From NCBI GenBank assembly GCA_041660505.1, contig JBAZWG010000001.1, forward strand, positions 179,979 to 243,978: a stretch of 64,000 nt of DNA, in the 5' to 3' direction. The position numbers and the translations under genes were made by a program. The notes beneath the pieces are model-generated. The model saw only the letters and a program-made list of their open reading frames with translations, did no database searches and was not told the DNA's origin. Of the stretch, positions 8,410 through 62,579 are shown piece after piece. The DNA comes from Minisyncoccota bacterium. GTDB taxonomy: Bacteria; Patescibacteriota; Minisyncoccia; Phycocordibacterales; JACRKE01. How positions within the stretch are numbered: the stretch's first letter is position 1; each line of letters begins with the position of its first letter.

Positions 8410-8785
8410 ACAAAAGACCCCTTGCGGGGCCCCTTGGCATGCGATAAGCCGAATTCTGTTTGGATATTCATTTATCTAGGCTCTATATTACTATAGGGCT
8501 CAAGCGGCACTCTGGCCGGAACTTTAACTCCGATGTTAAGGTCTCTCCTCCTCATGGGAGGTGAGACCTTTAGCTGTCAACATCGGATGTTAAAGTTCCG
8601 GCCAGCACGGCCTTGCACTCACGTAGGAATTTTGCCGTTTCAGCCGGACTTAACCGGGTCGTTTCTGTTCTCATCCCTATGATTACTCACGACGGGCGTT
8701 ACCCGCTACGCGTACCCACTAAAGGGTTAAGTGTTCGGACTTTCCTCATCCCGCCGAGGCGGGACGCGAATATCTCGCATACTTG
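8410..8785 (-). ncRNA. rnpB: RNase P RNA, bacterial type A
   Basis: Minus strand contains the P4 5' strand GAGGAAAGUCCGAACAC. It also carries GGUAACGCC, ACAGAAAC, and a 3' region CCUAGAUAAAUGAAUAUCCAAACAGAAUUCGGCUUAUCGC, which matches E. coli M1 CCUAGAUGAAUGACUGUCCACGACAGAACCCGGCUUAUCGG as recalled. P1 pairing is UAUGCGA/UCGCAUG. A terminator CCCCGCAAGGGG + UUUUGUUUU follows. Confidence 0.85.
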
Positions 8786-14386: not shown

Positions 14387-14413
14387 GCTTTCGGCGACCC
14401 AAGTTTCAATCTG

Positions 14414-14500
14414 CGGATCGGGTGGGATTCGAACCCACGAGACTATTGCTAGTCTGGCAGTTTAGTAAACTGCTGCCTTCAACCACTCGGCCACCGATCC
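14414..14500 (-). tRNA. type-II (long variable arm) tRNA, Ser-like, nominal anticodon ACU
   Basis: Reverse complement GGAUCGG-UG-GCCGAGUGGUUGAAGGC-A-GCAGU-UUACUAA-ACUGC-CAGACUAGCAAUAGUCUCG-GUGGGUUCGAAUCCCAC-CCGAUCC-G. The acceptor pairs fully. The D-arm is Ser-like. The anticodon loop UUACUAA gives ACU in place of the usual GCU. Confidence 0.7.
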
Positions 14501-14573
14501 TTGCGAATTACCAGACTATCACATTTACCGGCTAGAAAAAAGGTGGAAATAATGCTAGATTTATCAAGTATTT

Positions 14574-14662
14574 GGAGCCGTGGTGGAGTGGTCTAACATA
14601 CCTCTTTGCTAAAGAGGCGGCCGGGTAAAACTGGCCCGCGAGTTCGAATCTCGCCGGCTCCG
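14574..14662 (+). tRNA. tRNA-Ser (anticodon GCU)
   Basis: GGAGCCG-UG-GUGGAGUGGUCUAACAU-A-CCUCU-UUGCUAA-AGAGG-CGGCCGGGUAAAACUGGCCCG-CGAGUUCGAAUCUCG-CCGGCUCC-G. Type II with a long variable arm. Confidence 0.9.
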
Positions 14663-14698
14663 TTTGTAAAATTTTATTAATCTTTATATAATACGTTC

Positions 14699-15187: not shown

Positions 15188-15593
15188 AACACTTCTTAAC
15201 CCTCCCGGGTTCCCGGGTGCTACCAGCGCTTTCTCTCACGGCGTCAAGATAGACTTGAACGACGCGGAGATAATATTCGTCACCGGTCAGGTGGCGATAG
15301 ACGAGCAAGGCAATGTGCTCTTTGCCGACAGTATCGCGAAGCAAACAGAATTTGTTTTCGAGAATATAAAGAAAATTCTGGCCGAAGGCGGAGCCTTGCT
15401 TGATGATATAGTGAAAGTGACTATTTACTTAACCCATCTGCACGCCGCAACATTCGCCGAGGTTGCCGCCGTGCGTAATAGATATCTCGCTAATGCAAAA
15501 GCCGCGAGCACTCTTGTAGGAGTGGCAAAGCTGGCCAAAGACGCCTGCCACGTCGAGATTGACGCAATAGCGGTGAAGAAAAAGATTATCTAG
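15180..15593 (+). CDS. RidA/YjgF/TdcF family reactive-intermediate deaminase
   Basis: 137 aa with family motifs IIFVTGQVAID and VKVTIYLT...AAVRNRY. It overlaps the upstream GAF gene by 8 nt. Confidence 0.8.
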   Translation: MPKTLLNPPGFPGATSAFSHGVKIDLNDAEIIFVTGQVAIDEQGNVLFADSIAKQTEFVFENIKKILAEGGALLDDIVKVTIYLTHLHAATFAEVAAVRNRYLANAKAASTLVGVAKLAKDACHVEIDAIAVKKKII

Positions 15594-18500
15594 TTGCCGA
15601 ACACTGTTACGAGCATAGCGCGCGTCGCAGGACCGACGACTCCGTATCCGATCGCTCCCCTTTTCGCGATACCATACTTCTCTTGGAATTTCTGGACAGC
15701 TTGAAGTGTCAGATTGCCGAAGTAGCCGGTGACTTGTCCATTCTTATATATAGACTTATCTTGAGCCAATAGTCTCTGGAGCAGAGTAACACTGCTACCT
15801 CTAGAACCAATGACCAACACAGAGTTGATGCTTGAAGCGCCCTTAATAGTTGCGGGTACTCGAACTTGTGTTTGTGCTCTTTTAGAAATTACGGGGTGGA
15901 GAAAAATGAAACTGTCTGCCGGCGTAACTGTGGGTACTACTTTCTCCATCACCTTAGGCTTAGCATCACTAAACAATCCCATCACCCAGCCGTAGATAGG
16001 GCCGTTGTTGCTAGCGAGACGGACCACCTCAGGCACGGCTGTTAATGTGCCGAAGGTCGTGAAGTGGTAAGTTAAGACTTTCGTCTGCAGGCCATTACTG
16101 ATACCGCATTCGCCGAACGGTGTCGGATCTGTCGGAGAGGAATATGTACCGGCGCAAGTTGAGAGCGTCTGCCAAGTGTCTGAGCCGGCCATCTTGAATA
16201 CCATTGTCTTAACAGTGTCGAATGTGAGAGTAACTGCTTTGTCAAATATGAGAGTAACATCGGCTGAACCGATCTGTATAGCATCGCCGACCAAAAAACC
16301 GGATGGCGAAGTGCCAGCACTACTACCCGTAATGGGCGGGGTTATTTTGCCGTCCCAGTCGGTGGGGCCCATTATGGACGTGGCATCAGGGATAGACAAA
16401 CTTGTGCCGGAGACTGCCGAACCGGTAATGACTACTGGAGAGCCAGTCGTACCGGAATTAAGAGTGAAGCCGGTGCCGACTGTGACAGTCTTATCCGCAA
16501 TCGTTTGGGGTTGAGTCAAGTCGACAGAGACAAGCGAACCGCTCGTGAATGCGCCAAGCGGCAAGATTGAACCATTAAGAGTTAAGTTGCCACCAGAGAT
16601 TGATGACAGACTAGTGGACGCAGACAACGGGGAGGATTCGGAAAGGACCAGTGTTGTAATAGAACTCGGCATGGTGACACCGCCAGAAGAAGTTCCTTCG
16701 AACACGACCGGTTCACTGCCACCGGTTACGGTGGTACCGCTCGTCGTCAGGGATTTGAAGTTTCTTGTGGCAGAAGTGTTAACGTTACCGGCAAGGTCGT
16801 TGCAGGTGACAGTCAAAGTATGAGCTGTGCCTGTTATGCCGGTAATTGCGCTAGCAGTATGAGTGGTTCCTCCGGTCGTGGCGAAGGCAACCGAGTCCGC
16901 GCCATCGTATGAATATGTGCAGGTTGCCGCTTCATTGGTTGTGACTTGCGGGGTAGTTGAAGTGGCAATCATAGAACCTTCTGTCGGAGTCGTGATGCTG
17001 ATCGTAGGAGTAGACTTATCGAAGGTGACGCCAGAGCCGGAAGTGATAGCCGTCACCGCAGAAGCGGCGTTGCCAACGATATCTGTCGGAGTGATACTAA
17101 ACTGTATCACCTGTTGGGTGTCGCCGGATATCATCGTGGTCGAGGCCGTCCATGACGTACCGGAGCCTGTAATATTCGCACTGCGGCTGGCAATAAGAAC
17201 AGTAGGAGTTGTAATGCTTTCGTTGGCAGTAAATGTTAAGGTGACGATATCGTTCGTTGTGGCTCTGGAGGCGGTCGTATTGTTGTTCGAGGCGATCGTG
17301 ACAGGAGAAAGCGTCGGGGCAGATTTATCGAAGGTTACATTGGAACCGGAAGTGACAGCGAGCGCGGTCGTGCCGACATTCCCCGCCAAGTCAACCGGTG
17401 TAATGGCAAAGCTAATGGCGCTTTCGGTATCGCCGGTCTCCATCGTCTGCGTGGCGCTCCAGGATGAATTCGAACCTGATACACTGGCCGCTCTGCCAGC
17501 GATGGTTACCGTTGGCGTCTTGATATTCTCATCTGTTGTAAATATGAGCGTCACAATATTGGCCACCTTCGCAAGTGTGTTGGTCGTGTTGTTGGAAGAT
17601 ATCGTGACGGTTGACACTGCCGGTGGGGTTTTGTCGAAGCGAACATTAGAGCCCGACGTGATGGCGGTGACGGCGATGCCGGAGTTGCCTGCCATATCAA
17701 TAGGTGTTGCCGAGAACGTAACTGTGCCGTTCGTGTCCCCCGTCTCCATCGTGGTCGAGGCTGTCCACGACGTGCCAGAGCCAAGGACAGTTGCAGGGCG
17801 ACCGAAGATTGTGACAGTCGGCGTGGCGATGGCTTCAGAACTTGTGAACGTAAGGGTCACAATATCAGCGACTTTTGCGAGCGTGTTAGTAGTATTGTTA
17901 GAAGATATAGTAACAGGCGAGAGGGTCGGTACGGTTTTGTCAAATACGACATTCAGACCTGTTGTGATGGCGGTAACAGCCGAGCCTTCGTTCCCCGCCG
18001 CATCTGTCGGCGTGATGGAAAATGCCACGGCCGTTTCGCTATCGCCGGACTGCATCGTCGTCGAGGCCGTCCACGTCGTACCCGAACCGAGTACAGTTGC
18101 GCTCCTGCCGGCAATGGTTACCACCGGCGTTCGCAAACTCTCGTCTGCCGTGAATGCGAGGGTAACGACATTATCTGTTTTCGCCAGAGTCGTCGATGAA
18201 TTGGATGATGAGATAGTAACAGTTGGCACGGTTGGAACTGTTTTATCAAAAGTGACAGCCGAGCCGTTGGACGTTGCCGTGACGGGCGTGGCCTCATTCC
18301 CTAACGTATCCGTGGCTGTCACCGAGAAGGTAACCACTGCTTCAGTATCTCCTGCTTGCATCGTGGTCGAGGCTTGCCATGTCGTGCCGGAGCCGGTGAT
18401 GTTCGCACCTCTACCATCGATGGTTACAACGGGAGTTTGAATGGATTTATTTGCTGTGAACGAGAGTGTAACGATGTCGTCTGTCTTTGCGCGCGTAGTG

Positions 18501-20617
18501 CTTGAGTTATTAGACGTAATTGTTATTGGCGCGAGCACTGGCGCGGACTTGTCCATCGTAACGCTTGATGAATTGGTTGTGCTTGTGACAGCAGAAGCAA
18601 CATTGCCAGCCGTATCTGTCGCGGTGATGCTGAACGGTATTGCAATTTCCGGATCGTCAGCCGTCATTGTGGTCGAGGCCGTCCAAGACGTGCCGGAGCC
18701 GGTGATGTTCGCACCTCTGCCGGCGATAGTAACAGTAGGGGAAACTATCGCTTCGTTCGCGACGATTGTAAGCGTAACAATACTGCCGATGCCGGCCTTA
18801 GTGGTATCAGAATTGTTTGAAGCTATCGTAACTGTGTCGAGCGTGGGGGGATTGAAGTCGGCATCGGCAGTGGCAGCAGCTGCACCAGTAGAACCATTGT
18901 GACTGCCACCGCTAGTACCGCTACCGCCTGCGGCCGCGACACTCCCGCTCCACGAACCACCACTTGAATAATGAACTGCAACTATTCCTCCCCCGCCACC
19001 ACCGCTAACATTATTAGTCGTGCCCGCACCGCCGGTCGCCGTTATACTGCCAGAACCTGCGAGAGTATTTGTGTATATATAGACACCACCGCCAGCACCA
19101 CCTCCGCCAGTTTGTGAAAATTGGCCACTTGTACCATCAGAACCATTTGCGACTATAGTGCCGTTAAGTGTAAAACTGCCTGTTGCCAAAATTGAAAGAT
19201 GGCCACCGCCCGCGCCACCGCTTGCGTATCCGCCGACTTCACTTCCCGCACCTCCGGAGCCCATGTCTGTAGGGTGAGTCGCGGTATCGTAAGCGACACC
19301 TCCGCCGGCCCCATTGCCACCGTCTCCCCCTCTGCCGCCATGGCCACCTCCGTCACCTTGGACAGTCACTCCCACTCCTCCTCCGCCGGGTCCGTTGCCT
19401 ATTTGCGTGGGACTCCCTCCGGTATACCCCTTACCTGAGATGCTAATGGATCCGCCAGAATCAATTGTAACGTCTGTAATTGTCCAATCTATGTAATTTG
19501 TTTTGGCTGTGGTATTCGTCTTGTGAGTCATTAGACCGCTCGATTTTATCGTGAGAGCATCAAGGGTAATAGTGTTATCAGCGAAGCCAGTACCAACATT
19601 AGAAGATACTCCGTTGTTAGCAACAAAAATTTCACCATATGTCTCTGCGGCTGATTTTGTAAAAATAGTTCCGGCTCCGGCATCCTGACCTCCGCTGTAA
19701 TGAGTACCGCCGTATGCTTTAACGTAAGTGTCAAAGTTGGACGACGTAAACATGTTGTTCGTGGTGTAACGAATTGCAATTCTGCCACCCCCACCACCAC
19801 CGCTAGAGTTGTTCGAGCTACCCACACCTCCGTTTGCGGTGATAGTCCCCGCACCGTTCAGAGTCCCTGTGTTTATTAAAATACTTCCGCCCGCGCCACC
19901 ACCACCGGTTTGAGAAAACTGACCACCTACCGCATTGGAACCATTCGCCGAAATCGTTCCGCCGATTGTTGCCGTACCCGAAATTGTAAGGCTAATAAGA
20001 CCACCTCCTGTGCCACCGCTTGCATAACCTCCAACACCACTTCCGGAACCGCCCGATCCCATATCTGTCGGTGTAGAGGCAGAATCATAGACCGTACCTC
20101 CGGCACCACCATCTCCCTTACCGCCAAATCCTCCATGGCCACCACCGTTGCCCTGGATGTCTGCGCCTCCTACGCCGCCGCCGGGGCCGGAACCGGAAGT
20201 CAAGCCGCCACCGCCCGCATAACCCAAACCGGCCGCAGTGAGAGTGCCGTTGATGGTCGTGCTCGCGGCGGTAATATTTACACTGCCGTAACTAGCGCCG
20301 TCATACGCTTTGACAGAAACCGTGCCGGAAGGAATTGAGAACCCTGCTATCCCGCAGTGAGCGCCGGCGATAGCGATTCCCGCCGTGCCGTCCAAGTCCC
20401 ACGTGTCGCCATTGGTTGGTGTCCAGTCCTGGTCTACGCCATCTACGGCGTGATCATTCGCACATGTGTCGGCCTTACTTATAAAAGGGGTTAGTGCGAA
20501 TTTATGGATAGCGACGGCAACAACAGCCACCGCCAAGACGTGGACAAAAATATGGAATGCCGGACACCTTTCCGCATCAATAAAGTGGCGCGACAGCGTT
20601 GTTGGATATTTCGCCAT
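15590..20617 (-). CDS. giant cell-surface protein: N-terminal TM anchor, Gly-rich beta-helix-like region, ~9 tandem ~95-aa Ig-like repeats, C-terminal peptidoglycan-binding-like domain
   Basis: 1675 aa. The repeated unit is TVTISSNNSxTTLAKxxxIVTLxFTxxExIxTPxVTIAGRxAxxxGSGTxWxASTTM..GD....FSITPxDxAGNxG. Repeat units of about 285 bp are visible in the DNA at 16860-18900. GG[AS]G-rich stretches are present. The C-terminus has LLQRLLAQDKSIYKNGQVTGYFGNLTLQAVQKFQEKYGI. Confidence 0.7.
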   Translation of the reverse strand: MAKYPTTLSRHFIDAERCPAFHIFVHVLAVAVVAVAIHKFALTPFISKADTCANDHAVDGVDQDWTPTNGDTWDLDGTAGIAIAGAHCGIAGFSIPSGTVSVKAYDGASYGSVNITAASTTINGTLTAAGLGYAGGGGLTSGSGPGGGVGGADIQGNGGGHGGFGGKGDGGAGGTVYDSASTPTDMGSGGSGSGVGGYASGGTGGGLISLTISGTATIGGTISANGSNAVGGQFSQTGGGGAGGSILINTGTLNGAGTITANGGVGSSNNSSGGGGGGRIAIRYTTNNMFTSSNFDTYVKAYGGTHYSGGQDAGAGTIFTKSAAETYGEIFVANNGVSSNVGTGFADNTITLDALTIKSSGLMTHKTNTTAKTNYIDWTITDVTIDSGGSISISGKGYTGGSPTQIGNGPGGGGVGVTVQGDGGGHGGRGGDGGNGAGGGVAYDTATHPTDMGSGGAGSEVGGYASGGAGGGHLSILATGSFTLNGTIVANGSDGTSGQFSQTGGGGAGGGVYIYTNTLAGSGSITATGGAGTTNNVSGGGGGGIVAVHYSSGGSWSGSVAAAGGSGTSGGSHNGSTGAAAATADADFNPPTLDTVTIASNNSDTTKAGIGSIVTLTIVANEAIVSPTVTIAGRGANITGSGTSWTASTTMTADDPEIAIPFSITATDTAGNVASAVTSTTNSSSVTMDKSAPVLAPITITSNNSSTTRAKTDDIVTLSFTANKSIQTPVVTIDGRGANITGSGTTWQASTTMQAGDTEAVVTFSVTATDTLGNEATPVTATSNGSAVTFDKTVPTVPTVTISSSNSSTTLAKTDNVVTLAFTADESLRTPVVTIAGRSATVLGSGTTWTASTTMQSGDSETAVAFSITPTDAAGNEGSAVTAITTGLNVVFDKTVPTLSPVTISSNNTTNTLAKVADIVTLTFTSSEAIATPTVTIFGRPATVLGSGTSWTASTTMETGDTNGTVTFSATPIDMAGNSGIAVTAITSGSNVRFDKTPPAVSTVTISSNNTTNTLAKVANIVTLIFTTDENIKTPTVTIAGRAASVSGSNSSWSATQTMETGDTESAISFAITPVDLAGNVGTTALAVTSGSNVTFDKSAPTLSPVTIASNNNTTASRATTNDIVTLTFTANESITTPTVLIASRSANITGSGTSWTASTTMISGDTQQVIQFSITPTDIVGNAASAVTAITSGSGVTFDKSTPTISITTPTEGSMIATSTTPQVTTNEAATCTYSYDGADSVAFATTGGTTHTASAITGITGTAHTLTVTCNDLAGNVNTSATRNFKSLTTSGTTVTGGSEPVVFEGTSSGGVTMPSSITTLVLSESSPLSASTSLSSISGGNLTLNGSILPLGAFTSGSLVSVDLTQPQTIADKTVTVGTGFTLNSGTTGSPVVITGSAVSGTSLSIPDATSIMGPTDWDGKITPPITGSSAGTSPSGFLVGDAIQIGSADVTLIFDKAVTLTFDTVKTMVFKMAGSDTWQTLSTCAGTYSSPTDPTPFGECGISNGLQTKVLTYHFTTFGTLTAVPEVVRLASNNGPIYGWVMGLFSDAKPKVMEKVVPTVTPADSFIFLHPVISKRAQTQVRVPATIKGASSINSVLVIGSRGSSVTLLQRLLAQDKSIYKNGQVTGYFGNLTLQAVQKFQEKYGIAKRGAIGYGVVGPATRAMLVTVFGN

Positions 20618-22722: not shown

Positions 22723-22813
22723 CTATCGCACGGCACGTGCGAAACTTGCTTTATCCTACAGATTTCCGTCAATAACGCAAACAGCGGAGGTTCAACCTCC
22801 GCTGTTCTGTTGT

Positions 22814-22857
22814 CACCGAGGAGAGACCTCCGCTTTTCCGGAGGACTCACCTCGCCG
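22814..22857. repeat. ~45-nt GC-rich palindromic element (CCGAGGAGAGACCTCCG-loop-CGGAGGACTCACCTCGG family), copy 1
   Basis: Imperfect hairpin immediately 3' of groEL. Related copies are at 47953-48000, 48014-48062 and 62533-62579. Confidence 0.7.
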
Positions 22858-22907
22858 TCTTTAATTTTATTATTCCTAACTCCTATCTCCCATCTCCTAA
22901 CTCCTCT

Positions 22908-30196: not shown

Positions 30197-31159
30197 CTAA
30201 AGCATTTCCTGTAACTTCTGTGTATTTCCGTGCTTTAGCAACCCGAGATAGGATTGCAGGGTAGCTGGATTGTGTAGCTTTTTCTGCAAGTTTCTAAACA
30301 TCCGTTTCTTCGTCGTCGTGCGCAGTACCCGGTGATCGGGAAAATGCACCCATCCCAGGAAGTCGACGCCAGAAGCAAGTGTAGCGATAGAAACCTTGTT
30401 CGGATGCAATGAAAGCTTGAGCATTATATTCAGAAAATCAGAAATTTGGGGAATGAGTTGTTCGAGTAATGTTTTGTCATCAGAAAGAAAGACAAAATCA
30501 TCTGCATAACGAATGTAATGCTTTACTTTTAGTTTGTGTTTCACATACTGATCGAACTCGTCCATGTAAATATTCACTAAAAGTTGCGAGGTCAGATTAC
30601 CGAGCGGCAGACCGGTTTGAAAACTTGAAATTACTTTCTCAAGCAACCACTGGACGTTCTCGTCAGAAATATATTCTGCAAGAATGCTAAAAATAATCTG
30701 GTGGTTGATGTTCGCAAAGAACTTGCGTATGTCGCATTTGAGTACCCAGCAGGTACGGGTATTATTCTTGGACATCCGATGTCCAAATTCTTCAAATCGC
30801 TTGAGTGCCTTGTGAGTTCCCTTTCGTAACCGACAAGAGTATGAGTCAGATATAAAAGTCCCGTCGAAGAAGGGATAGAGTTTGCGGTAGAGCGCGTGAT
30901 GTAATAACCTGTCGCGCACCGACGCCTTATGAATATCGCGAGGCTTGGGGTCATTAATTTTGAAGTGCTCATAGTGGCCGTGCATATAGGTAAAACTTTT
31001 CAATTCTCGATGAAGAGTCAAGATATTGTGCAGTAAATGTAACTGAAAAACTTGCACGTCGGCTTTCGTCTTTTTATCTCGAACAAAGTTTTGCCACGCA
31101 AATAACAAATTCTTTACGGAAATGATCTCTTCATAGCTAGTTGTAAACTTTTTTCTCAT
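30197..31159 (-). CDS. DGR reverse transcriptase
   Basis: RT motifs in order: RPRDIHKASVRDRLLHHAL, CDIRKFFANINH, GLPLGNLTSQLLVNIYM (the DGR-type [LI]GxxxSQ signature replacing QGxxxSP) and YIRYADDFVFL. 320 aa, with no maturase or endonuclease domains. Confidence 0.85.
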   Translation of the reverse strand: MRKKFTTSYEEIISVKNLLFAWQNFVRDKKTKADVQVFQLHLLHNILTLHRELKSFTYMHGHYEHFKINDPKPRDIHKASVRDRLLHHALYRKLYPFFDGTFISDSYSCRLRKGTHKALKRFEEFGHRMSKNNTRTCWVLKCDIRKFFANINHQIIFSILAEYISDENVQWLLEKVISSFQTGLPLGNLTSQLLVNIYMDEFDQYVKHKLKVKHYIRYADDFVFLSDDKTLLEQLIPQISDFLNIMLKLSLHPNKVSIATLASGVDFLGWVHFPDHRVLRTTTKKRMFRNLQKKLHNPATLQSYLGLLKHGNTQKLQEML

Positions 31160-31202
31160 ATGGTAGCTTTTTTAATTATGCAAAATCAAAACCTTAAAAG
31201 TA

Positions 31203-31213
31203 CCCCCCCCCCC
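31203..31213. repeat. homopolymeric C11 tract (G11 on the RT strand)
   Basis: taCCCCCCCCCCCgcaac, 44-54 nt upstream of the RT ATG, in the divergent RT/avd intergenic region. Confidence 0.9.
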
Positions 31214-31281
31214 GCAACACCCTGCCGCTTATTACGAAAGTAAAAGCAGTCTATATTTTGTGGCTTCCGGTTCATAAGAAT

Positions 31282-31584
31282 ATGCCAAGGCTCGAACGAT
31301 TTGGCCTTGGCGCGACCATCGAGAAAACTTTTCTTGATCTGCTCAATACGCTTCGCAAAGCTGCCTACGCAGACACGACTCATAAGTTACCGTTGCTTGA
31401 AGAAGCGATTGACGCGGTAGACTGCTTACGTTTCTTTTTACAGCTCGCATGGGAAACCAAGACTATCTCGCACAAACATCTTGCAATCATCGGCGAAGGC
31501 ATCGAGGAAGTTGGGCGCATGATCGGCGGATGGCGAAAAGGCCTGCTTACGAAAACCTCCACAACGCGTGCGGAGGAAAGATAA
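31282..31584 (+). CDS. avd: DGR accessory variability determinant (Avd)-like four-helix-bundle protein
   Basis: ORF 31258..31584 with likely start MPRLERFGLG. Motifs LRFFLQLAW and EEVGRMIGGWRKG resemble bAvd (LRFWLRFLA / AEVGRILGSW) as recalled. The gene is on the opposite strand from the RT and TR. Confidence 0.6.
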   Translation: MPRLERFGLGATIEKTFLDLLNTLRKAAYADTTHKLPLLEEAIDAVDCLRFFLQLAWETKTISHKHLAIIGEGIEEVGRMIGGWRKGLLTKTSTTRAEER

Positions 31585-31588
31585 GGGT

Positions 31589-31693
31589 AGCGGGAGACGA
31601 CCTGATTGCCGTCGTTCCACCTGTTCGGGTTCTCGACCGAGTTCGCGTTGACGTTCCAGCCGTTGCCGGAGTTCCAGTTCGCGTTCACGACCC
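31589..31693 (-). repeat. DGR1 template repeat (TR)
   Basis: 105-nt match to 32058-32162. All 17 mismatches are T on the plus strand here (A on minus). TT doublets correspond to AAC (Asn) codons in minus sense. Confidence 0.8.
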
Positions 31694-32055
31694 AGAGAAA
31701 CAAGCGCCACGCACCGTGCAGACTGCCATCCGTGCCACTGTTCTTTGAGTTCTTTTGGAATACTCGCCGAGCTGTATCGTGTCTGGGACATTCAAAGTCC
31801 GCCAGCAATCTGCACCGATCCTCACTCTTTTTTAGAGCTTGCTGTATCCACACTTGGTGCAGGCGTACCCGCACTAATTCTCGAATACAGGGATGCGAGG
31901 CCCTCTGCACAAGCCGTAGCCGGTGCAATGGAGTGGCCTTAACTTGAGAAGCTAGCATATGTAGATAAAAAACAAAACCCCCCGATACCTGCCGCCAAAG
32001 CGACAAAGTGTCAGAGGGCTTAAGAAGAAAGAATAAGTGACCGAGGTAAACAGGA

Positions 32056-32787
32056 TCAGCGGGAGACGACCTGAAGGCCGACGCTCCACCTGAGCGGGCC
32101 CTCGACCGAGCGCGCGAGGACGTACCAGCCGTTGCCGGAGTCCCAGCCCGCGCTCACGAACCAGAGAACGCCATTTTCGTCCTCGACATACGCGATGTTC
32201 GCGTAGCCGTTGACGAGGAGCGGGCCAGTCTCTCCGCGGGGCTGCTGCAACAGCATACCCCAGAAGTGGGCTAGCTTGATGACCCGGCGAGCTTCATCGA
32301 GCTCGCTCATGATTTCGGGATCGAGTGAGGAACGGAGGAGGGTGTGGCAGCGCAGCTCGGCCTTCTCGACGTCGGTCTCGATCTTGTTCGAGAAGTTCGC
32401 CTTGAAGTTGTCGCCCAGGTAGTAGATCTGGACGGCGGCCTTCGCGGAGGTGTCGAGCTTGAAGTGCTTCTTCACTTCGAACTTGTCGTAGGACGGCACG
32501 ATGGTCGTGCCTTCGACGAGCTTGAGCCGCGGCTGCGCGGGCGGTGCGGATGGCGAGACAACCTCGGGCTTGACGACGAGCGTCTTGCCCGAGTTGATGG
32601 CTGCACACGCGTCCGCCATCTGTTCCCGCACGGACTTCTTGTCCTTGTGCGCGAGCGCCGCCTGTTGCTCAGGCGTAAGCTTGCCGAGGAGTTCGGCGGC
32701 GAGGAGGAGTCGCGCATTTGCGATCTTCCCCGCGAGGTCGTAGGACGCTCCGCGTCCTCGGGTGTCGGGCAATCCCTTTCTGGGCAT
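32056..32787 (-). CDS. DGR1 target protein (C-type-lectin-like C-terminus carrying VR)
   Basis: Start set at MPRKGLPD, with SD GGAAGGAGGTG 5 nt upstream. The C-terminus ...WFVSAGWDSGNGWYVLARSVEGPLRWSVGLQVVSR is encoded by the VR and ends at the stop. No signal peptide. Confidence 0.7.
   Translation of the reverse strand: MPRKGLPDTRGRGASYDLAGKIANARLLLAAELLGKLTPEQQAALAHKDKKSVREQMADACAAINSGKTLVVKPEVVSPSAPPAQPRLKLVEGTTIVPSYDKFEVKKHFKLDTSAKAAVQIYYLGDNFKANFSNKIETDVEKAELRCHTLLRSSLDPEIMSELDEARRVIKLAHFWGMLLQQPRGETGPLLVNGYANIAYVEDENGVLWFVSAGWDSGNGWYVLARSVEGPLRWSVGLQVVSR
32058..32162 (-). repeat. DGR1 variable repeat (VR)
   Basis: Homologous to TR1, with A/G/C at the 17 positions where TR1 has T (plus strand). 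It abuts the target stop codon. Confidence 0.8.
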
Positions 32788-32981
32788 TGGACACCTCCTT
32801 CCCACACAGCGGTGGGGTACACGGTAAATGATAGTCTTGCAACCGAGCAAGTATCATTAACCGCGATCACTTATCGGTTTTCAATATAGCGAAGCTGCCG
32901 TATAATTTAGCATACTCTTTCGATATATGTCAATAGCAGTTATCCAGAACTAATTTTGTCACCGCGCGATATAATAGAGAT

Positions 32982-42529: not shown

Positions 42530-42554
42530 AAGTTACCTATTATGCAATATTTTT

Positions 42555-42582
42555 AGCCTTTACGCTAGGTCGGTTGCGGTGA
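42555..42582. repeat. 28-bp direct repeat CCTTTACGCTAGGTCGGTTGCGGTGAGC, copy 1
   Basis: Identical to 44118-44145. Together they flank the SDR + wHTH-Cas2-like segment. Confidence 0.85.
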
Positions 42583-42611
42583 GCCAGTTTAAATTTTGGG
42601 CAGCGTATCTC

Positions 42612-44054: not shown

Positions 44055-44117
44055 AATACTACAAAATTAGACGGCCGTTCAAAAATGTAGTAAATCCGGG
44101 TTTCAAGAATTATGACC

Positions 44118-44145
44118 TTTACGCTAGGTCGGTTGCGGTGAGCTC
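44118..44145. repeat. 28-bp direct repeat, copy 2
   Basis: Encodes the last 8 codons and stop of the Clp-like gene (ELTATDLA*). Confidence 0.85.
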
Positions 44146-47763: not shown

Positions 47764-47952
47764 GACAAAACTCCTTTTCCAGCCAATGGGAATGATTCCC
47801 AAAAGCCCTAATTCCTCCGTGGGTGGAGACGTACTGTTCCATGTTCCCCCAGAGGCGAGTGACCGTATCAAGGTTGTTATAGCATACTGCCAACAAGAGA
47901 ACAACTCGACCCCAGTGGCTCATTTCCCACCATTTGACCCGAGGATGCTTGG

Positions 47953-48000
47953 TCGCCGAGGAGAGACCTCCGCTTTTACCGGAGGACTCACCTCGGCGAC
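47953..48000. repeat. GC-rich palindromic element, copy 2
   Basis: GTCGCCGAGGAGAGACCTCCGCTTTTACCGGAGGACTCACCTCGGCGAC. Confidence 0.7.
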
Positions 48001-53143: not shown

Positions 53144-54139
53144 TTAGCCAATTGTTTTTTGTATGCCATGTCCATTGCAATGTTTGAGTAGCCCGACATA
53201 TGACTGTATTACATCAGGATTATATTCTTTTCCTACTATATTCCGAAACATTCGTTTTTTAGTCTTTGTTCGCAAAATGCGATGATTTGGAAACTGCACA
53301 TAACCGAGAAAATCAATTCCTTGCCGTAGTTTAGAAATCGAAACTTTTTTCGGATGAAGTGAGAGCTTTAGTTTTTCTTGCAAAAAAACGTTGACACGAG
53401 GCAATAAAGCCTCAAGCTCTGTATGACTTTGTGAAAGTATAACGAAATCATCGCAGTAACGAATGTAGTACTTTTGTTTAAGGATATGTTTTACGAACTG
53501 ATCCAGCTCATTCAGGTACACATTGGCAAACAGTTGGCTCGTCACATTGCCGAGCGGTATTGCCTTGCCTTGTATTTTTTCAAAACTGCCGATGATTTTT
53601 TTGATTAGCCACTTAGTATCTTCTCCGTGGATAACATGAGACAGTAGTCTAAGCAAAATTTCGTGATCGATAGTATCGAAAAACTTGCGAATATCGCATT
53701 TGAGCACATACGCGAGCTGATTATTATTCGCACTAACTCTTCGGCCGAACGCATGCAGTCGCTCGACTCCCGCATGCGTTCCCTTGCGAAACCGGCATGA
53801 GTAGGAGTCGAAGATAAAATGCTGATCGAATTGGTGATACAAGACTCGGAAAATTGCTTGGTGTAGTACGCGATCAAAGACCGTTGCTTTGTGGATGTGC
53901 CGGAGTTTCGGATCGCGGACGTAGAACGCTTCATACCGGCCGGTCTCGTATGTTTTGTTTTTTAGCTGTTCGTGGAGCAAAAACAGATTATCTTCGAGTC
54001 GGAATTCAAATTCCTGAACGTCTTGCTTTTTCGTCTTGCCTCGTTTAAACTCGCGCCATGCGGCAAATAGATTTTCGAGTGAAATAATCCGTTCAAATAC
54101 ATGATCGAAAATTCCACTAATAAGACCCCCCCCCGGCAC
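53144..54139 (-). CDS. DGR reverse transcriptase (paralog)
   Basis: Motifs CDIRKFFDTIDH, AIPLGNVTSQLFANVYL (the [LI]GxxxSQ signature) and YIRYCDDFVIL. The GTG start is immediately followed by an in-frame G9 tract encoding PGGG. Confidence 0.85.
   Translation of the reverse strand: MPGGGLISGIFDHVFERIISLENLFAAWREFKRGKTKKQDVQEFEFRLEDNLFLLHEQLKNKTYETGRYEAFYVRDPKLRHIHKATVFDRVLHQAIFRVLYHQFDQHFIFDSYSCRFRKGTHAGVERLHAFGRRVSANNNQLAYVLKCDIRKFFDTIDHEILLRLLSHVIHGEDTKWLIKKIIGSFEKIQGKAIPLGNVTSQLFANVYLNELDQFVKHILKQKYYIRYCDDFVILSQSHTELEALLPRVNVFLQEKLKLSLHPKKVSISKLRQGIDFLGYVQFPNHRILRTKTKKRMFRNIVGKEYNPDVIQSYVGLLKHCNGHGIQKTIG
54126..54134. repeat. homopolymeric C9 tract (G9 on the RT strand) at the RT2 5' end
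   Basis: agaCCCCCCCCCgg, located in codons 2-5 of the RT2 ORF as called and 70 nt from the avd2 ATG. Confidence 0.9.
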
Positions 54140-54206
54140 TCTCCAAATCCCCTTGGTTCATAAGATTCGTGAAGTATATCGGAGTTTATATATTGTCGGC
54201 AAGCGG

Positions 54207-54491
54207 ATGCCGAAGCGAGATAGGTTCGGAATATACCAACAGCTCGAGACGTTAGTCTTGCTCTGTCTGCGGATTGCTATTACGGCCGCCTTATCAAAAC
54301 CGGAACAAAAGCCTCCTTTCATAACACGCTTGCGTATTGAAATTGAAGTATGCAAACAGCTTATCCGCGTGGCACACGAATTGGGCAGTATTGAGCAGAA
54401 AGATTATTTGATGTTATCAGAATTCCTTATCGAATGTTCCAAGATGTCCTATAAGTGGCTTGAGTCTCTAACCAAAAAGGAGCCGCAGTAA
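54207..54491 (+). CDS. avd: Avd-like four-helix-bundle protein (paralog)
   Basis: ORF 54153..54491 (TTG) with likely start MPKRDRFGIY, paralleling avd1 MPRLERFGLG. It is divergent from RT2. Confidence 0.6.
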   Translation: MPKRDRFGIYQQLETLVLLCLRIAITAALSKPEQKPPFITRLRIEIEVCKQLIRVAHELGSIEQKDYLMLSEFLIECSKMSYKWLESLTKKEPQ

Positions 54492-54513
54492 TGCGACTCC
54501 GCTTGGCGAGACT

Positions 54514-54626
54514 ATCTCACGGGTACGCAGGTTCTCGTTCGCATTGTCCGTGTTGTACCAGTTGACGTTCAGCTTGTCGTAGTTCCAGTTCACGTTCGGG
54601 ACGTTGCCGTCGGAATTGCGCGAGCC
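54514..54626 (-). repeat. DGR2 template repeat (TR)
   Basis: 113-nt match to 54934-55046. All 19 mismatches are T (plus strand), so A on the minus strand. Confidence 0.8.
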
Positions 54627-54857
54627 ATGTGTTGCCTCATGCCATCCACTTCACTGGCGGTCTTTTGCAAAGTCGCCTGTTCCCGTTTCTCGCGGTACTG
54701 CGCCGAGGCAGCTCTGTTTGGAGGCAGACTGCAAAATTATTTTTGCAAGACATCCTCGCCAGCATGAGGCACGTAGTTTCGTATAGACTGTGGCAAACCG
54801 ATATCTCGTTTTTTATGCGAGACCGATTGTATGAGCCAGATTAGTAGTATAAAAGAA

Positions 54858-54890
54858 TCGAACCCCATTTGCCAGAGGCAAACAGGGTTC
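54858..54890. repeat. hairpin downstream of VR2
   Basis: CGAACCC-cauuugccagaggcaaaca-GGGUUCG, about 45 nt 3' of the target stop in minus sense. Confidence 0.5.
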
Positions 54891-54922
54891 GAAAAGTGTA
54901 CAAAATAAAAAGGAGGCAAGTG

Positions 54923-55642
54923 TTACGAAACGACCTCACGGGCACGCAGGTGCTCGTGCGCACCGTCCGCGTCGTACCAGTGGACGCTCAGCTTGCCGTA
55001 GTACCAGTACACGAGCGGGACGTAGCCGCCGGAATAGCGCGAGCCCGAGCACAGCGTGATGTTCACGCTGTCCAAATGCTTCCCCGTTTCGAGGAAGTAC
55101 TTGAGCTCCAGGTCAAGGCGCTCGGGCAAGCTGATGCCCTGTACCTTCTTGTCCTCGAGGTCGTTGGCGGAGCAGTTCTTCCACTCGGCGTCTGCCTCAA
55201 CGCCGTCCCGCACCCAGATGGCGTGGGGCTTTTCGGTGCCGAAACGGTCGTTCCGCGTCACCGACGCGTCGAGGTCGGCCGTGTAGCGCCAGCAGGTGAA
55301 CTGCTTGGCGCAGACGTCGAACCTCCGGTTGATGGTGACGCCCGGTGCCTCGATGATGAGGCGACCGAAGCCCGGACGCGTGACGGGGATGGCGAGCTCA
55401 CGCAGGTCGAGTTTGACCTTGTAGAGATCGCCCCAATAGGCAATCCACGGGGTGAGCAACTTCTTGCGTGCCCGCCCGCCGAGCGCGCGCGGCCCCGTGC
55501 CTGCGCGCTCGAGCTTGAACGGGTTCCGACGCTGGAGGAAGAGCTTGACCTCTTCCTCGCTCAAGGCACCCGCCTTGAGCTTCGCCGTGAAGTCGACCAA
55601 AAGGTCGAACTTCGTGTTGTTACCGGCCTGTCCGTCAGACAT
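54923..55642 (-). CDS. DGR2 target protein (C-type-lectin-like C-terminus carrying VR)
   Basis: SD AGGAGG precedes the ATG by 6 nt. The C-terminus ...SGSRYSGGYVPLVYWYYGKLSVHWYDADGAHEHLRAREVVS is encoded by the VR. Confidence 0.7.
   Translation of the reverse strand: MSDGQAGNNTKFDLLVDFTAKLKAGALSEEEVKLFLQRRNPFKLERAGTGPRALGGRARKKLLTPWIAYWGDLYKVKLDLRELAIPVTRPGFGRLIIEAPGVTINRRFDVCAKQFTCWRYTADLDASVTRNDRFGTEKPHAIWVRDGVEADAEWKNCSANDLEDKKVQGISLPERLDLELKYFLETGKHLDSVNITLCSGSRYSGGYVPLVYWYYGKLSVHWYDADGAHEHLRAREVVS
54934..55046 (-). repeat. DGR2 variable repeat (VR)
   Basis: A/G/C at the 19 positions where TR2 has T (plus strand). Confidence 0.8.
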
Positions 55643-62484: not shown

Positions 62485-62532
62485 GTAATTAGAAAATCCT
62501 AACATAATATTAGGATTTTCGGAAGCCTTTTT

Positions 62533-62579
62533 GTCGCCGAGGTGAGACCTCCGCCCTTGCTGGAGGACTCACCTCGGCG
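62533..62579. repeat. GC-rich palindromic element, copy 4
   Basis: GTCGCCGAGGTGAGACCTCCGCCCTTGCTGGAGGACTCACCTCGGCG. Confidence 0.7.

Follow-up and report, generated by a model that had tools for sequence, protein, structure and literature searches.

The region 30197-32850 of the analysed DNA (a stretch of 64 kb, hereafter the window) combines a reverse transcriptase (RT) gene with an imperfect repeat, one copy of which forms the end of a protein-coding gene. Is this a diversity-generating retroelement (DGR), and may it still be operating? Our data indicate, with a probability of about 0.93, that the region is a chromosomal DGR of the CPR (Patescibacteria) lineage, which we call DGR1. [quoted passage not shown] The DGR hallmarks that are testable in a sequence (an RT of the DGR clade, A-specific TR/VR differences, a VR in the 3'-terminal part of an ORF, and an Avd gene) are all present. 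The cassette is real but typical, being one more example, in the standard CPR layout, from a DGR-rich lineage of ultra-small bacteria.

Results

Genomic arrangement

DGR1 has an architecture of the published type: target/VR, TR, avd on the opposite strand, and RT. The avd gene (accessory variability determinant), which is absent from the initial annotation, sits between TR and RT and is directed oppositely to RT, TR, and the target. A second DGR of identical layout (DGR2) occupies positions 53144-55642 of the window, and the arrangement of DGR1 is repeated in about 40 of the 80 related loci. In both DGRs, TR is followed by avd on the reverse strand and then by RT, as in architecture B3, which was found in 90% of the CPR set by Wu et al. 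2018 (PMC5758913, figure 5 legend).

The avd gene and its C tract

The avd gene is located at 31178-31584 of the plus strand, with a conserved coding frame at 31198-31584. The Pfam model PF22296 (bAvd, a four-helix-bundle accessory protein) matches it above the cut-off (48.8 versus 40 bits), and the NCBIfam model NF033474 (DivGenRetAVD) matches 31231-31584 with 73 bits, a little short of the equivalog cut-off (80). Homology to Avd2 and to the relatives of DGR1 reaches upstream through PPPRNTLPLI. As assembled, no canonical start precedes this conserved N-terminus in its frame: the sole upstream ATGs (31160 and 31178) are shifted by one base, and the first canonical start in the frame is TTG 31258. 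For this reason DGR1 may be silent in the population that was sequenced, although TTG 31258 could still yield a slightly shorter Avd.

The 5' end of the avd frame includes Pro codons formed by a homopolymeric C11 tract (31203-31213, plus strand; G11 in the RT sense). Only two homopolymers of at least 9 nt occur in the window, and the other one (54126-54134) occupies the same place in DGR2, where it is also within the first codons of RT on the other strand. In the related loci, 21 of the 24 C/G runs of at least 9 nt are found at the avd tract site. Tract length ranges from 7 to 12 among relatives, some of which have a dinucleotide repeat in its place in the first avd codons, and about two thirds of the loci, both DGRs of the window among them, have avd in another frame than its ATG. 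Avd expression is probably governed by tract length. Hypermutation may hence be phase-variable, and both DGRs of the window may have been caught in the OFF frame. Programmed ribosomal or transcriptional slippage represents an alternative to such switching at the DNA level.

A less favourable interpretation is that the cassette descends from a DGR but has been switched off or is decaying, so that the TR/VR differences would be traces of earlier activity and Avd would not be made, its frame being broken at the C tract. We consider it unlikely, although several observations agree with it: neither DGR of the window has the ATG upstream of its C tract in frame with avd; one of the TR/VR differences falls outside the adenines; the 90%-identity protein cluster of the target has a single member; the only other contig carrying the target ends inside TR; and a pattern scan of metagenomes with the window's own tract flanks gave no match. 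However, RT, the avd body, TR, VR, and the target are all intact, the catalytic motifs are present, and the in-frame TTG may offer Avd a substitute start. In addition, the out-of-frame state is found in about two thirds of the relatives, yet the tract is kept across distant CPR lineages. A reversible switch or programmed slippage would account for this combination of a frequent out-of-frame state with a conserved tract better than decay would.

Reverse transcriptase

The RT gene (30197-31159, minus strand, stop included) encodes a protein of 320 aa that matches Pfam RVT_1 with 87 bits. DGR RTs have [I/L]GxxxSQ where group II RTs have QGxxxSP, and the DGR motifs reported initially for this protein were found in it: LGNLTSQ (residue 186) and YADD (residue 218). 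Its best solved relative is bRT of the Bordetella phage BPP-1 (PDB 8ub7; 150.7 bits, E 5e-43), which leads the next solved relatives by 86 bits; the scores of group II RT structures do not exceed 64 bits and those of retron RTs 30 bits. No record of the RT sequence was found in databases.

An origin of this RT from a group II intron, a retron, or a defence system, with the 111-nt repeat representing an unrelated duplication, has scarcely any probability. Generic models do match the protein (136 bits for the NCBIfam group II model TIGR04416 and 172 bits for the PADLOC generic RT model), but the family cut-offs are far above the scores (300 for TIGR04416; 235 for the best retron model, which gave 67 bits), and the protein falls under every NCBIfam cut-off for the group II, retron, DRT, and Abi families. 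Neither group II intron RNA nor a retron msr/msd, nor a member of any Rfam family, turned up when the locus and the window were scanned with Rfam. These cut-offs, the lead of bRT, the adjacent Avd gene, and the adenine-specific differences in the repeat effectively refute a non-DGR origin. In the comparison with DGR, group II, and retron RTs that had been proposed for this protein, the scores place it closest to DGRs.

Template and variable repeats

TR (31589-31699) and VR (32058-32168), both on the minus strand, comprise 111 nt with 84% identity. The 105-nt repeat described initially (31589-31693 and 32058-32162) is real, and its true length is slightly greater; the placement of VR at the 3' end of a minus-strand target gene was correct, as VR makes up the final 36 codons of a 243-aa ORF together with its stop. 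When the variable positions were masked, the pattern was found in the 64 kb in two copies only, versus 0 expected by chance.

All mismatches, 17 in number, had been claimed to be T on the plus strand. Tabulation by TR base within the initial 105-nt coordinates gave 18, of which 17 are indeed of this kind, being at TR adenines. The exception, at 31691 near the 5' edge of the repeat, has C in TR and A in VR (G to T in sense), and it leaves the DGR verdict unaltered. Overall, 17 of the 26 TR adenines are altered versus 1 of the 85 other bases (Fisher p 1.1e-12). The mismatches are largely in AAC codons, as stated earlier (altered codons: 9 AAC, 1 AAT, 1 GAC, and 1 non-A codon), and at AAY codons they fall in the first and second positions. 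TR has 15 A-containing codons (11 of them AAY), none of which is able to mutate to a stop, and about 10^15 protein variants were computed as reachable from it. An ordinary duplicated gene fragment that diverged through normal mutation would also be a two-copy direct repeat with 84% identity, but this origin has practically no chance and is refuted by the mismatch spectrum, since 17 of the 18 differences concern one base of one copy and an equal bias (620 of the 642 differences at TR adenines) was found in 37 independent related loci with the same target family.

The GC-rich 3' end of TR (TCAGGTCGTCTCCCGCT; 31589-31605, minus strand) is IMH*-like and identical to VR positions 32058-32074: there is no mismatch over 17 nt, and divergence starts immediately beyond. 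The putative IMH and IMH* are identical across their shared part.

Target protein

The target gene (32056-32787, minus strand) encodes a protein whose helical N-terminal part is variable and whose C-terminal domain, about 160 aa long, is conserved; the C-terminal sequence had been quoted correctly. The start of the gene was previously set at TTG 32850; ATG 32787 is likelier and gives a protein of 243 aa identical to a deposited one. An identical target gene is also present in the metagenome SRR18595301. A sigma-70-like promoter match (TTGACA-18-TAAATT with TG; 32904-32933, minus strand) was revealed upstream by a consensus scan only. The proposed lack of a signal peptide agrees with the maximal Kyte-Doolittle hydropathy of 0.87 (19 residues), which indicates no transmembrane or signal-like hydrophobic core. 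The protein looks cytoplasmic and, as is usual for targets in this lineage, is unannotated. The region is GC-rich, as was noticed before (63.7% in the target versus 49.1% in the whole window); GC3 of the target is 84.5%, and the GC content of RT is 41%.

Neither the target alone nor its whole family of 42 members had a meaningful match in Pfam, NCBIfam, and PDB sequences, and sequence profiles of FGE-sulfatase, DUF1566, or any Pfam family did not match it. The residues encoded by VR are predicted to lie on the variable face of a C-type-lectin-like domain. No BLASTP similarity was detected between the targets of DGR1 and DGR2, and the window contains no further copies of either target or VR. 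In the relatives, one TR also rewrites paralogous targets on other contigs, and these remote targets differ from TR almost only at A. DGR1 may therefore have targets outside the window.

Leader RNA and putative transcription signals

Directly 5' of TR we found a structured leader RNA of about 210 nt (31700-31931, minus strand) with helices P1, P2, and P3, the latter carrying P3a/P3b. RNAalifold gave 57 pairs, compensatory changes were present at 42 of these, and 94.9% of cells are paired versus 41-51% in slid controls. Double changes occur in 41 of 50 pairs, and none of the 500 shuffles does as well. The covariance model R1 matches 31711-31839 with 92 bits; its matches (47 in the 80 loci, and DGR2) are always just 5' of TR on the target strand. 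No Rfam match to the leader or to an RT-associated motif was found in the locus (E up to 1) or in the window (gathering thresholds).

On the other side of TR, a hairpin (CCTCCGCA...TGTGGAGG) followed by UUUU begins 12 nt after the repeat (31552-31576, minus strand) and overlaps the last avd codons. It was flagged by a terminator scan, has a folding z-score of -2.4, and is kept with compensatory changes in 29 loci; we regard it as a putative terminator-like element and/or Avd-binding stem-loop. In the 220 nt downstream of TR, antisense to avd, no conserved structure beyond this single hairpin was revealed. An alternative pairing, in which the 3' strand of this hairpin and the 3' end of TR would form a template:primer duplex, is not supported: no register with consistent covariation was found in the region, which is low-complexity pyrimidine/purine.

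Two further signals are located between VR and the leader. A long hairpin with a U-rich run (31964-32021, minus strand) lies 35 nt downstream of VR (minimum free energy -29.6 kcal/mol, z-score -3.6), and relatives have the equivalent hairpin GACCCTC...GAGGGTC-TTTT. It is a putative terminator of the target gene and/or the inverted repeat following IMH. An extended -10-like box (ATGCTAGCTT; 31949-31958, minus strand), with the consensus TTGnTATAnT in relatives, is a conserved block at the beginning of alignment A2 and a candidate promoter of the leader-TR RNA.

Discussion

We suggest that TR would be transcribed, by analogy with BPP-1, as a separate non-coding RNA starting at the -10-like box just past the target terminator. 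This DGR RNA would consist of the leader, the 111-nt TR, a pyrimidine-rich linker, and the hairpin with UUUU. RT and Avd would bind it and copy TR into cDNA with random bases opposite adenines; the cDNA would then replace VR, rewriting up to 15 codons and giving access to the whole range of computed variants. The transcript ends, the priming, and the role of the leader we infer by analogy. The leader may replace the BPP-1 Sp RNA in RT/Avd docking and priming, the DGR RNA being in effect permuted.

A broader proposal, which is possible but rather doubtful, is that CPR-type DGRs, including both studied here, are run by two undescribed cis elements, the leader RNA and the hypermutable avd tract. 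In the DGR literature compared here, to which the survey by Paul et al. 2017, reportedly the first one of CPR DGRs, does not belong, no description of either element was found.

The value of DGR1 is in what its comparison with about 40 relatives brought out. TR of the CPR-type elements appears as one end of a larger covarying RNA, with the structured part upstream of the template. To our knowledge, the BPP-1 DGR is the only one studied biochemically, and its structured RNA is downstream of the template. The placement of the leader warns against carrying the Bordetella RNA map over to CPR elements and makes the leader RNA a concrete candidate for reconstitution and cryo-EM. As far as we know, the ways in which cells restrain or time DGR mutagenesis are largely unknown; if the role suggested for the avd C tract is true, hypermutation itself would be stochastically switched, a simple hypothesis that is checkable in read-level data.

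Comparison with known systems

CPR/Patescibacteria DGRs correspond to DGR clade 2 in the study by Roux et al. 2021 (bioRxiv 10.1101/2020.04.01.020958). DGR1 is similar to them in host lineage, in the TR-(avd reverse)-RT order with the target upstream, in its location on a chromosome rather than a phage, and in its small target, which lacks a transmembrane segment and a recognisable domain; its gene layout does not differ from the published ones.

With the prototype BPP-1 DGR (mtd-avd-TR-brt), DGR1 shares a homologous RT, Avd, A-specific TR-to-VR transfer, and an AAC-rich TR; in both, moreover, the repeats have identical GC-rich 3' ends (IMH-like), VR is followed by a hairpin, and a stem-loop adjoins TR on its 3' side (Handa et al. 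bioRxiv 10.1101/2023.10.23.563531). VR of BPP-1 is at the C-terminus of a CLec-fold protein; VR of DGR1 is also C-terminal, while its CLec fold is only predicted. The differences concern the RNA first: in BPP-1 the structured priming RNA (140-nt Sp) is 3' of TR, whereas DGR1 has a large covarying domain 5' of TR and only one hairpin with UUUU on the 3' side. Moreover, avd of DGR1 is on the opposite strand between TR and RT, and the element is cellular, its target having no tail-fibre context. Compared with Treponema denticola TvpA and other FGE-type targets with the C-type-lectin fold, the DGR1 target is much smaller and has no lipoprotein or signal sequence and no FGE-sulfatase profile match.

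TR of Trichodesmium erythraeum has its own promoter, forms a discrete 265-nt non-coding RNA, and serves many targets (PMC4143802). Similarly, the -10-like box and the 3' hairpin with its U tract appear to bound a leader-TR unit in DGR1, and its relatives use remote targets; a leader structure of the DGR1 type is not known in Trichodesmium.

Homopolymer phase variation is typical of simple-sequence contingency loci in Neisseria, Campylobacter, and Mycobacterium (PMC2831843, PMC10334774). In DGR1, avd encodes a cofactor of a mutagenic retroelement, not a surface antigen, and the putative switching is deduced from the variation across relatives. The likeness consists in the homopolymer of 7-12 bases within the first avd codons, in its different length between close relatives, and in the avd frame being in phase in just one case out of three or so.

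The Repeat Pair and the Reverse Transcriptase

[quoted passage not shown] They are the only two copies in the 64-kb window when the pattern is searched with its variable positions masked, while 0 are expected by chance. The initial annotation had recognised this repeat, with a length of 105 nt, and had assigned all 17 mismatches to adenines. Tabulating the mismatches by TR base retained these 17 differences (minus sense) and added an eighteenth at 31691, where G in the TR sense strand is opposed to T in the VR; the count is 17/18, since this non-adenine position falls within the originally delimited repeat. The changes affect 17 of the 26 adenines and 1 of the 85 other bases (Fisher p 1.1e-12). 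The altered codons include nine AAC, the codon previously noted as predominant, one AAT, one GAC and the single non-adenine codon. The VR constitutes the final 36 codons and the stop of the minus-strand target ORF, and a stop can be reached from none of the 15 adenine-bearing codons of the TR; in principle, TR mutagenesis would give access to about 10^15 protein variants. The GC-rich 3' end common to TR and VR comprises 17 nt (31589-31605 and 32058-32074).

The reverse transcriptase (RT1; 320 aa, 30197-31159, minus strand) has the two motifs described before, LGNLTSQ (residue 186) and YADD (residue 218). Its closest solved relative in the PDB comparison is chain 8ub7_A (150.7 bits, E 5e-43), which we checked to be brt of the Bordetella phage BPP-1, while solved group II RTs reach at most 64 bits and those of retrons at most 30. 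RT1 also stays far under all curated NCBIfam cut-offs (136 vs 300 for group II, 67 vs 235 for retrons). To the RT, repeats and target listed in the initial annotation we add avd (accessory variability determinant), an overlooked plus-strand gene between TR and RT, which scores 48.8 bits with Pfam bAvd (cut-off 40) and 73 bits with NCBIfam DivGenRetAVD (cut-off 80). As far as the definition can be tested on sequence, DGR1 is a DGR. It is flanked by the housekeeping genes for RNase J, an MFS transporter, MgtC and a UvrD-type helicase, and is therefore chromosomal, not phage-borne.

A second complete element of the same layout with a different target, DGR2 (53144-55642), is located 23 kb from DGR1. 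It includes RT2 (53144-54139, minus strand; 54% identical to RT1), avd2 (54153-54491, plus strand), TR2 (54507-54626) and VR2 (54926-55045), the latter being the 3' end of target 2 (54923-55642, minus strand, 239 aa), for which BLASTP found no similarity to target 1. Adenines account for 19/20 of the TR2/VR2 differences (p 1e-11).

Target Protein and Its Relatives

From its likely start, the ATG at 32787, the DGR1 target has 243 aa and is identical to the NCBI protein WC764_01215 from a Candidatus Paceibacterota MAG (719-kb contig). An identical target gene occurs in an independent assembly, L081 (Logan contig SRR18595301_402696), which stops within the TR, a contig break of the kind expected at a TR/VR repeat. 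The GC content of the target, previously estimated at about 60% against about 48%, is 63.7% (GC3 84.5%), compared to 41% in the RT and 49.1% in the window. Both targets in the window (32056-32787 and 54923-55642) have 63-64% GC with GC3 of 85-87%, both RTs having 41%; in 33 related loci, mean GC is 53.5% for the target outside the VR, 44.5% for the flanks and 40.6% for the RT.

The AF2 model of the full-length target has a pLDDT of 85.5, with a helical, less confident N-terminus not conserved across the target family and a C-terminal domain above 90; residues 86-244 modelled alone reach pLDDT 95.7 and pTM 0.90. The structural matches include invasin and many animal C-type-lectin-like domains (CTLDs), in agreement with the fold initially suggested, but their scores are modest and a Foldseek search with the target gave no match, which is why we regard the C-type-lectin fold as likely, though unproven. 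Hydrophobic segments are absent from the target (maximum 19-residue hydropathy 0.87), and by this measure the reported lack of a signal peptide holds.

The target family comprises 42 protein clusters, among which no Pfam domain was found. Nearly all of the 174 genomic relatives among species representatives carry names from Patescibacteria/CPR (Paceibacterota, Saccharibacteria, Parcubacteria and others), with a few other labels. The order target - TR - (avd) - RT occurs in about half of the 80 related loci retrieved, and in the 37 loci with an alignable pair 620/642 TR/VR differences are at TR adenines. In genomes represented by several contigs, “orphan” target homologues on other contigs were compared with the TR of the DGR locus: adenines accounted for 10/10, 13/15, 15/19 and 22/26 differences. 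Since these homologues differ almost only at adenines, these DGRs commonly serve remote paralogous targets. In related loci, a single TR fits two or three paralogous targets, in part located on other contigs, with almost all differences at adenines (L016, L023, L030 and L031 versus L003, L028, L043 and L009; also L024, L036 and L059). The window has no VR of the DGR1 template (TR1) beyond 32058-32168; as one TR serves several paralogues in related genomes, TR1 targets outside the window are possible.

Structured RNA around the Template Repeat

Among the relatives, the “spacer” that separates VR from TR has a conserved sequence. It includes, after a conserved extended -10-like box, a leader RNA domain of about 210 nt (~31700-31931, minus strand) directly 5' of the TR. 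Of the 57 pairs that RNAalifold predicted for 29 aligned TR units, 42 have compensatory changes. In a count over nine helices (50 pairs), 94.9% of the cells were paired, against 41-51% in controls with the partners slid by 1-3 columns; double changes occurred in 41/50 pairs, the covariation score was 0.67 against 0.11-0.20, and none of the 500 shuffles equalled the observed values. A covariance model built from the 3' half gives 92 bits for DGR1 and has 47 matches in the 80 loci, every one on the target strand and immediately 5' to a TR. The model also marks 54633-54771 (minus strand), directly 5' of TR2, with a weak score (18 bits, E 0.11) but in the right place. Covariation in the aligned sequences thus makes the leader RNA well supported.

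Downstream of the TR, comparison of the relatives revealed no conserved structure within 220 nt besides a single hairpin. In DGR1 this hairpin, followed by UUUU, is shorter (z-score -2.4), is flagged as terminator-like and overlaps the last avd codons on the opposite strand, while a strong hairpin with a U-run (z-score -3.6) follows the VR. For 207/278 Avd-containing DGRs, CPR ones included, Handa et al. (bioRxiv 10.1101/2023.10.23.563531) predicted that a stem-loop bound by Avd follows closely after the TR, and the post-TR hairpin fits their description. On the upstream side, the same authors looked at no more than 40 nt per TR. The leader has no match in Rfam 15, which covers the motifs that Weinberg et al. 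(2017) found associated with RTs. We therefore propose that in this lineage the TR has its structured partner on the 5' side.

By analogy with the Bordetella system (Handa et al.), RT and Avd would bind the TR-containing RNA, which would be reverse-transcribed with random bases put opposite adenines, and the resulting cDNA would replace the VR, the 17-nt GC-rich end marking the 3' boundary of exchange.

A C Tract at the Start of avd

Just two homopolymers in the window reach a length of 9 nt, C11 (31203-31213) and C9 (54126-54134), one at the 5' end of each avd gene. Of 24 C/G runs of 9 nt or more in related loci (706 kb), 21 occupy the avd site. The tract provides Pro codons directly before the conserved motif PPP-R/N-x-x-L-P-V/I, the codons of which differ by synonymous changes, and the region is therefore translated. 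Its length ranges from 7 to 12 C among relatives, two of which have (GA)n or (TC)n in its place. In a set of ten sequences that share the same flanks, the tract has 8, 9, 9, 10, 10, 11, 11, 11, 11 and 11 C's.

At every locus with a tract, an ATG precedes it by 4-45 nt, and the frame from this ATG is open into the tract. Where there are at least 7 C's, the ATG is in frame with avd in only 9/30 loci, a share that cannot be told apart from one third; where such a tract is lacking, it is in frame in 4/4 loci (Fisher p 0.015). As assembled, avd is out of frame with its ATG in both elements: joining MQNQNLKST-PPP... to Avd requires 12 or 9 C's in DGR1, and an in-frame avd requires 8 or 11 in DGR2. 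The DGR2 tract also lies within the first RT codons, because the only canonical RT start (GTG 54139) is upstream of it on the other strand.

The simplest reading of the comparative frame statistics is, as a hypothesis, that the tract acts as a slipped-strand ON/OFF switch of Avd; DGR activity may be switched in this way, by phase variation or by slippage. Alternatively, ribosomes or transcription may undergo programmed slippage on the tract, and errors in homopolymer assembly are a caveat. Among the papers searched, none linked DGRs with homopolymers or phase variation.

Other Features of the Window

A 50-nt element with internal dyad symmetry (GCCGAGGxGAGACCTCCG...CGGAGGACTCACCTCGGCG) is present in three copies (22809-22858, 47949-47998 and 62530-62579), 60-88% identical to the reference copy; one adjoins tRNA-Thr, and the element has no match in Rfam. 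A 40-nt direct repeat (42545-42584 and 44104-44143, 88% identical; …CCTTTACGCTAGGTCGGTTGCGGTGAGC) is located at the ends of two adjacent minus-strand genes. The 1675-aa ORF at 15590-20617 (minus strand) has tandem coding repeats of about 306 nt at 17003-18754, and its product is a repeat-domain protein with about 102 aa per unit. Two tRNA-Ser genes are divergent (14413-14500, minus; 14573-14663, plus), one given the unusual anticodon ACT by ARAGORN, and RNase P RNA is located at 8433-8782 (minus strand).

Comparison with Known DGRs

The initial DGR call is a correct and ordinary finding. The leader RNA and the C tract are traits of the whole CPR group and not of DGR1 alone. The target of DGR1, having no hydrophobic segment, agrees with the CPR DGR targets of Roux et al. 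(bioRxiv 10.1101/2020.04.01.020958), which are typically without transmembrane or recognisable domains. Since avd sits between TR and RT, the order in the target sense is target/VR, TR, avd (opposite strand) and RT, with about 360 nt of spacer between the first two. The TR-(avd)-RT order is architecture B3, found in 90% of the CPR set of Wu et al. (2018, PMC5758913); the gene order of DGR1 is exactly alike, and DGR1 is a standard member of the CPR B3/clade 2 group.
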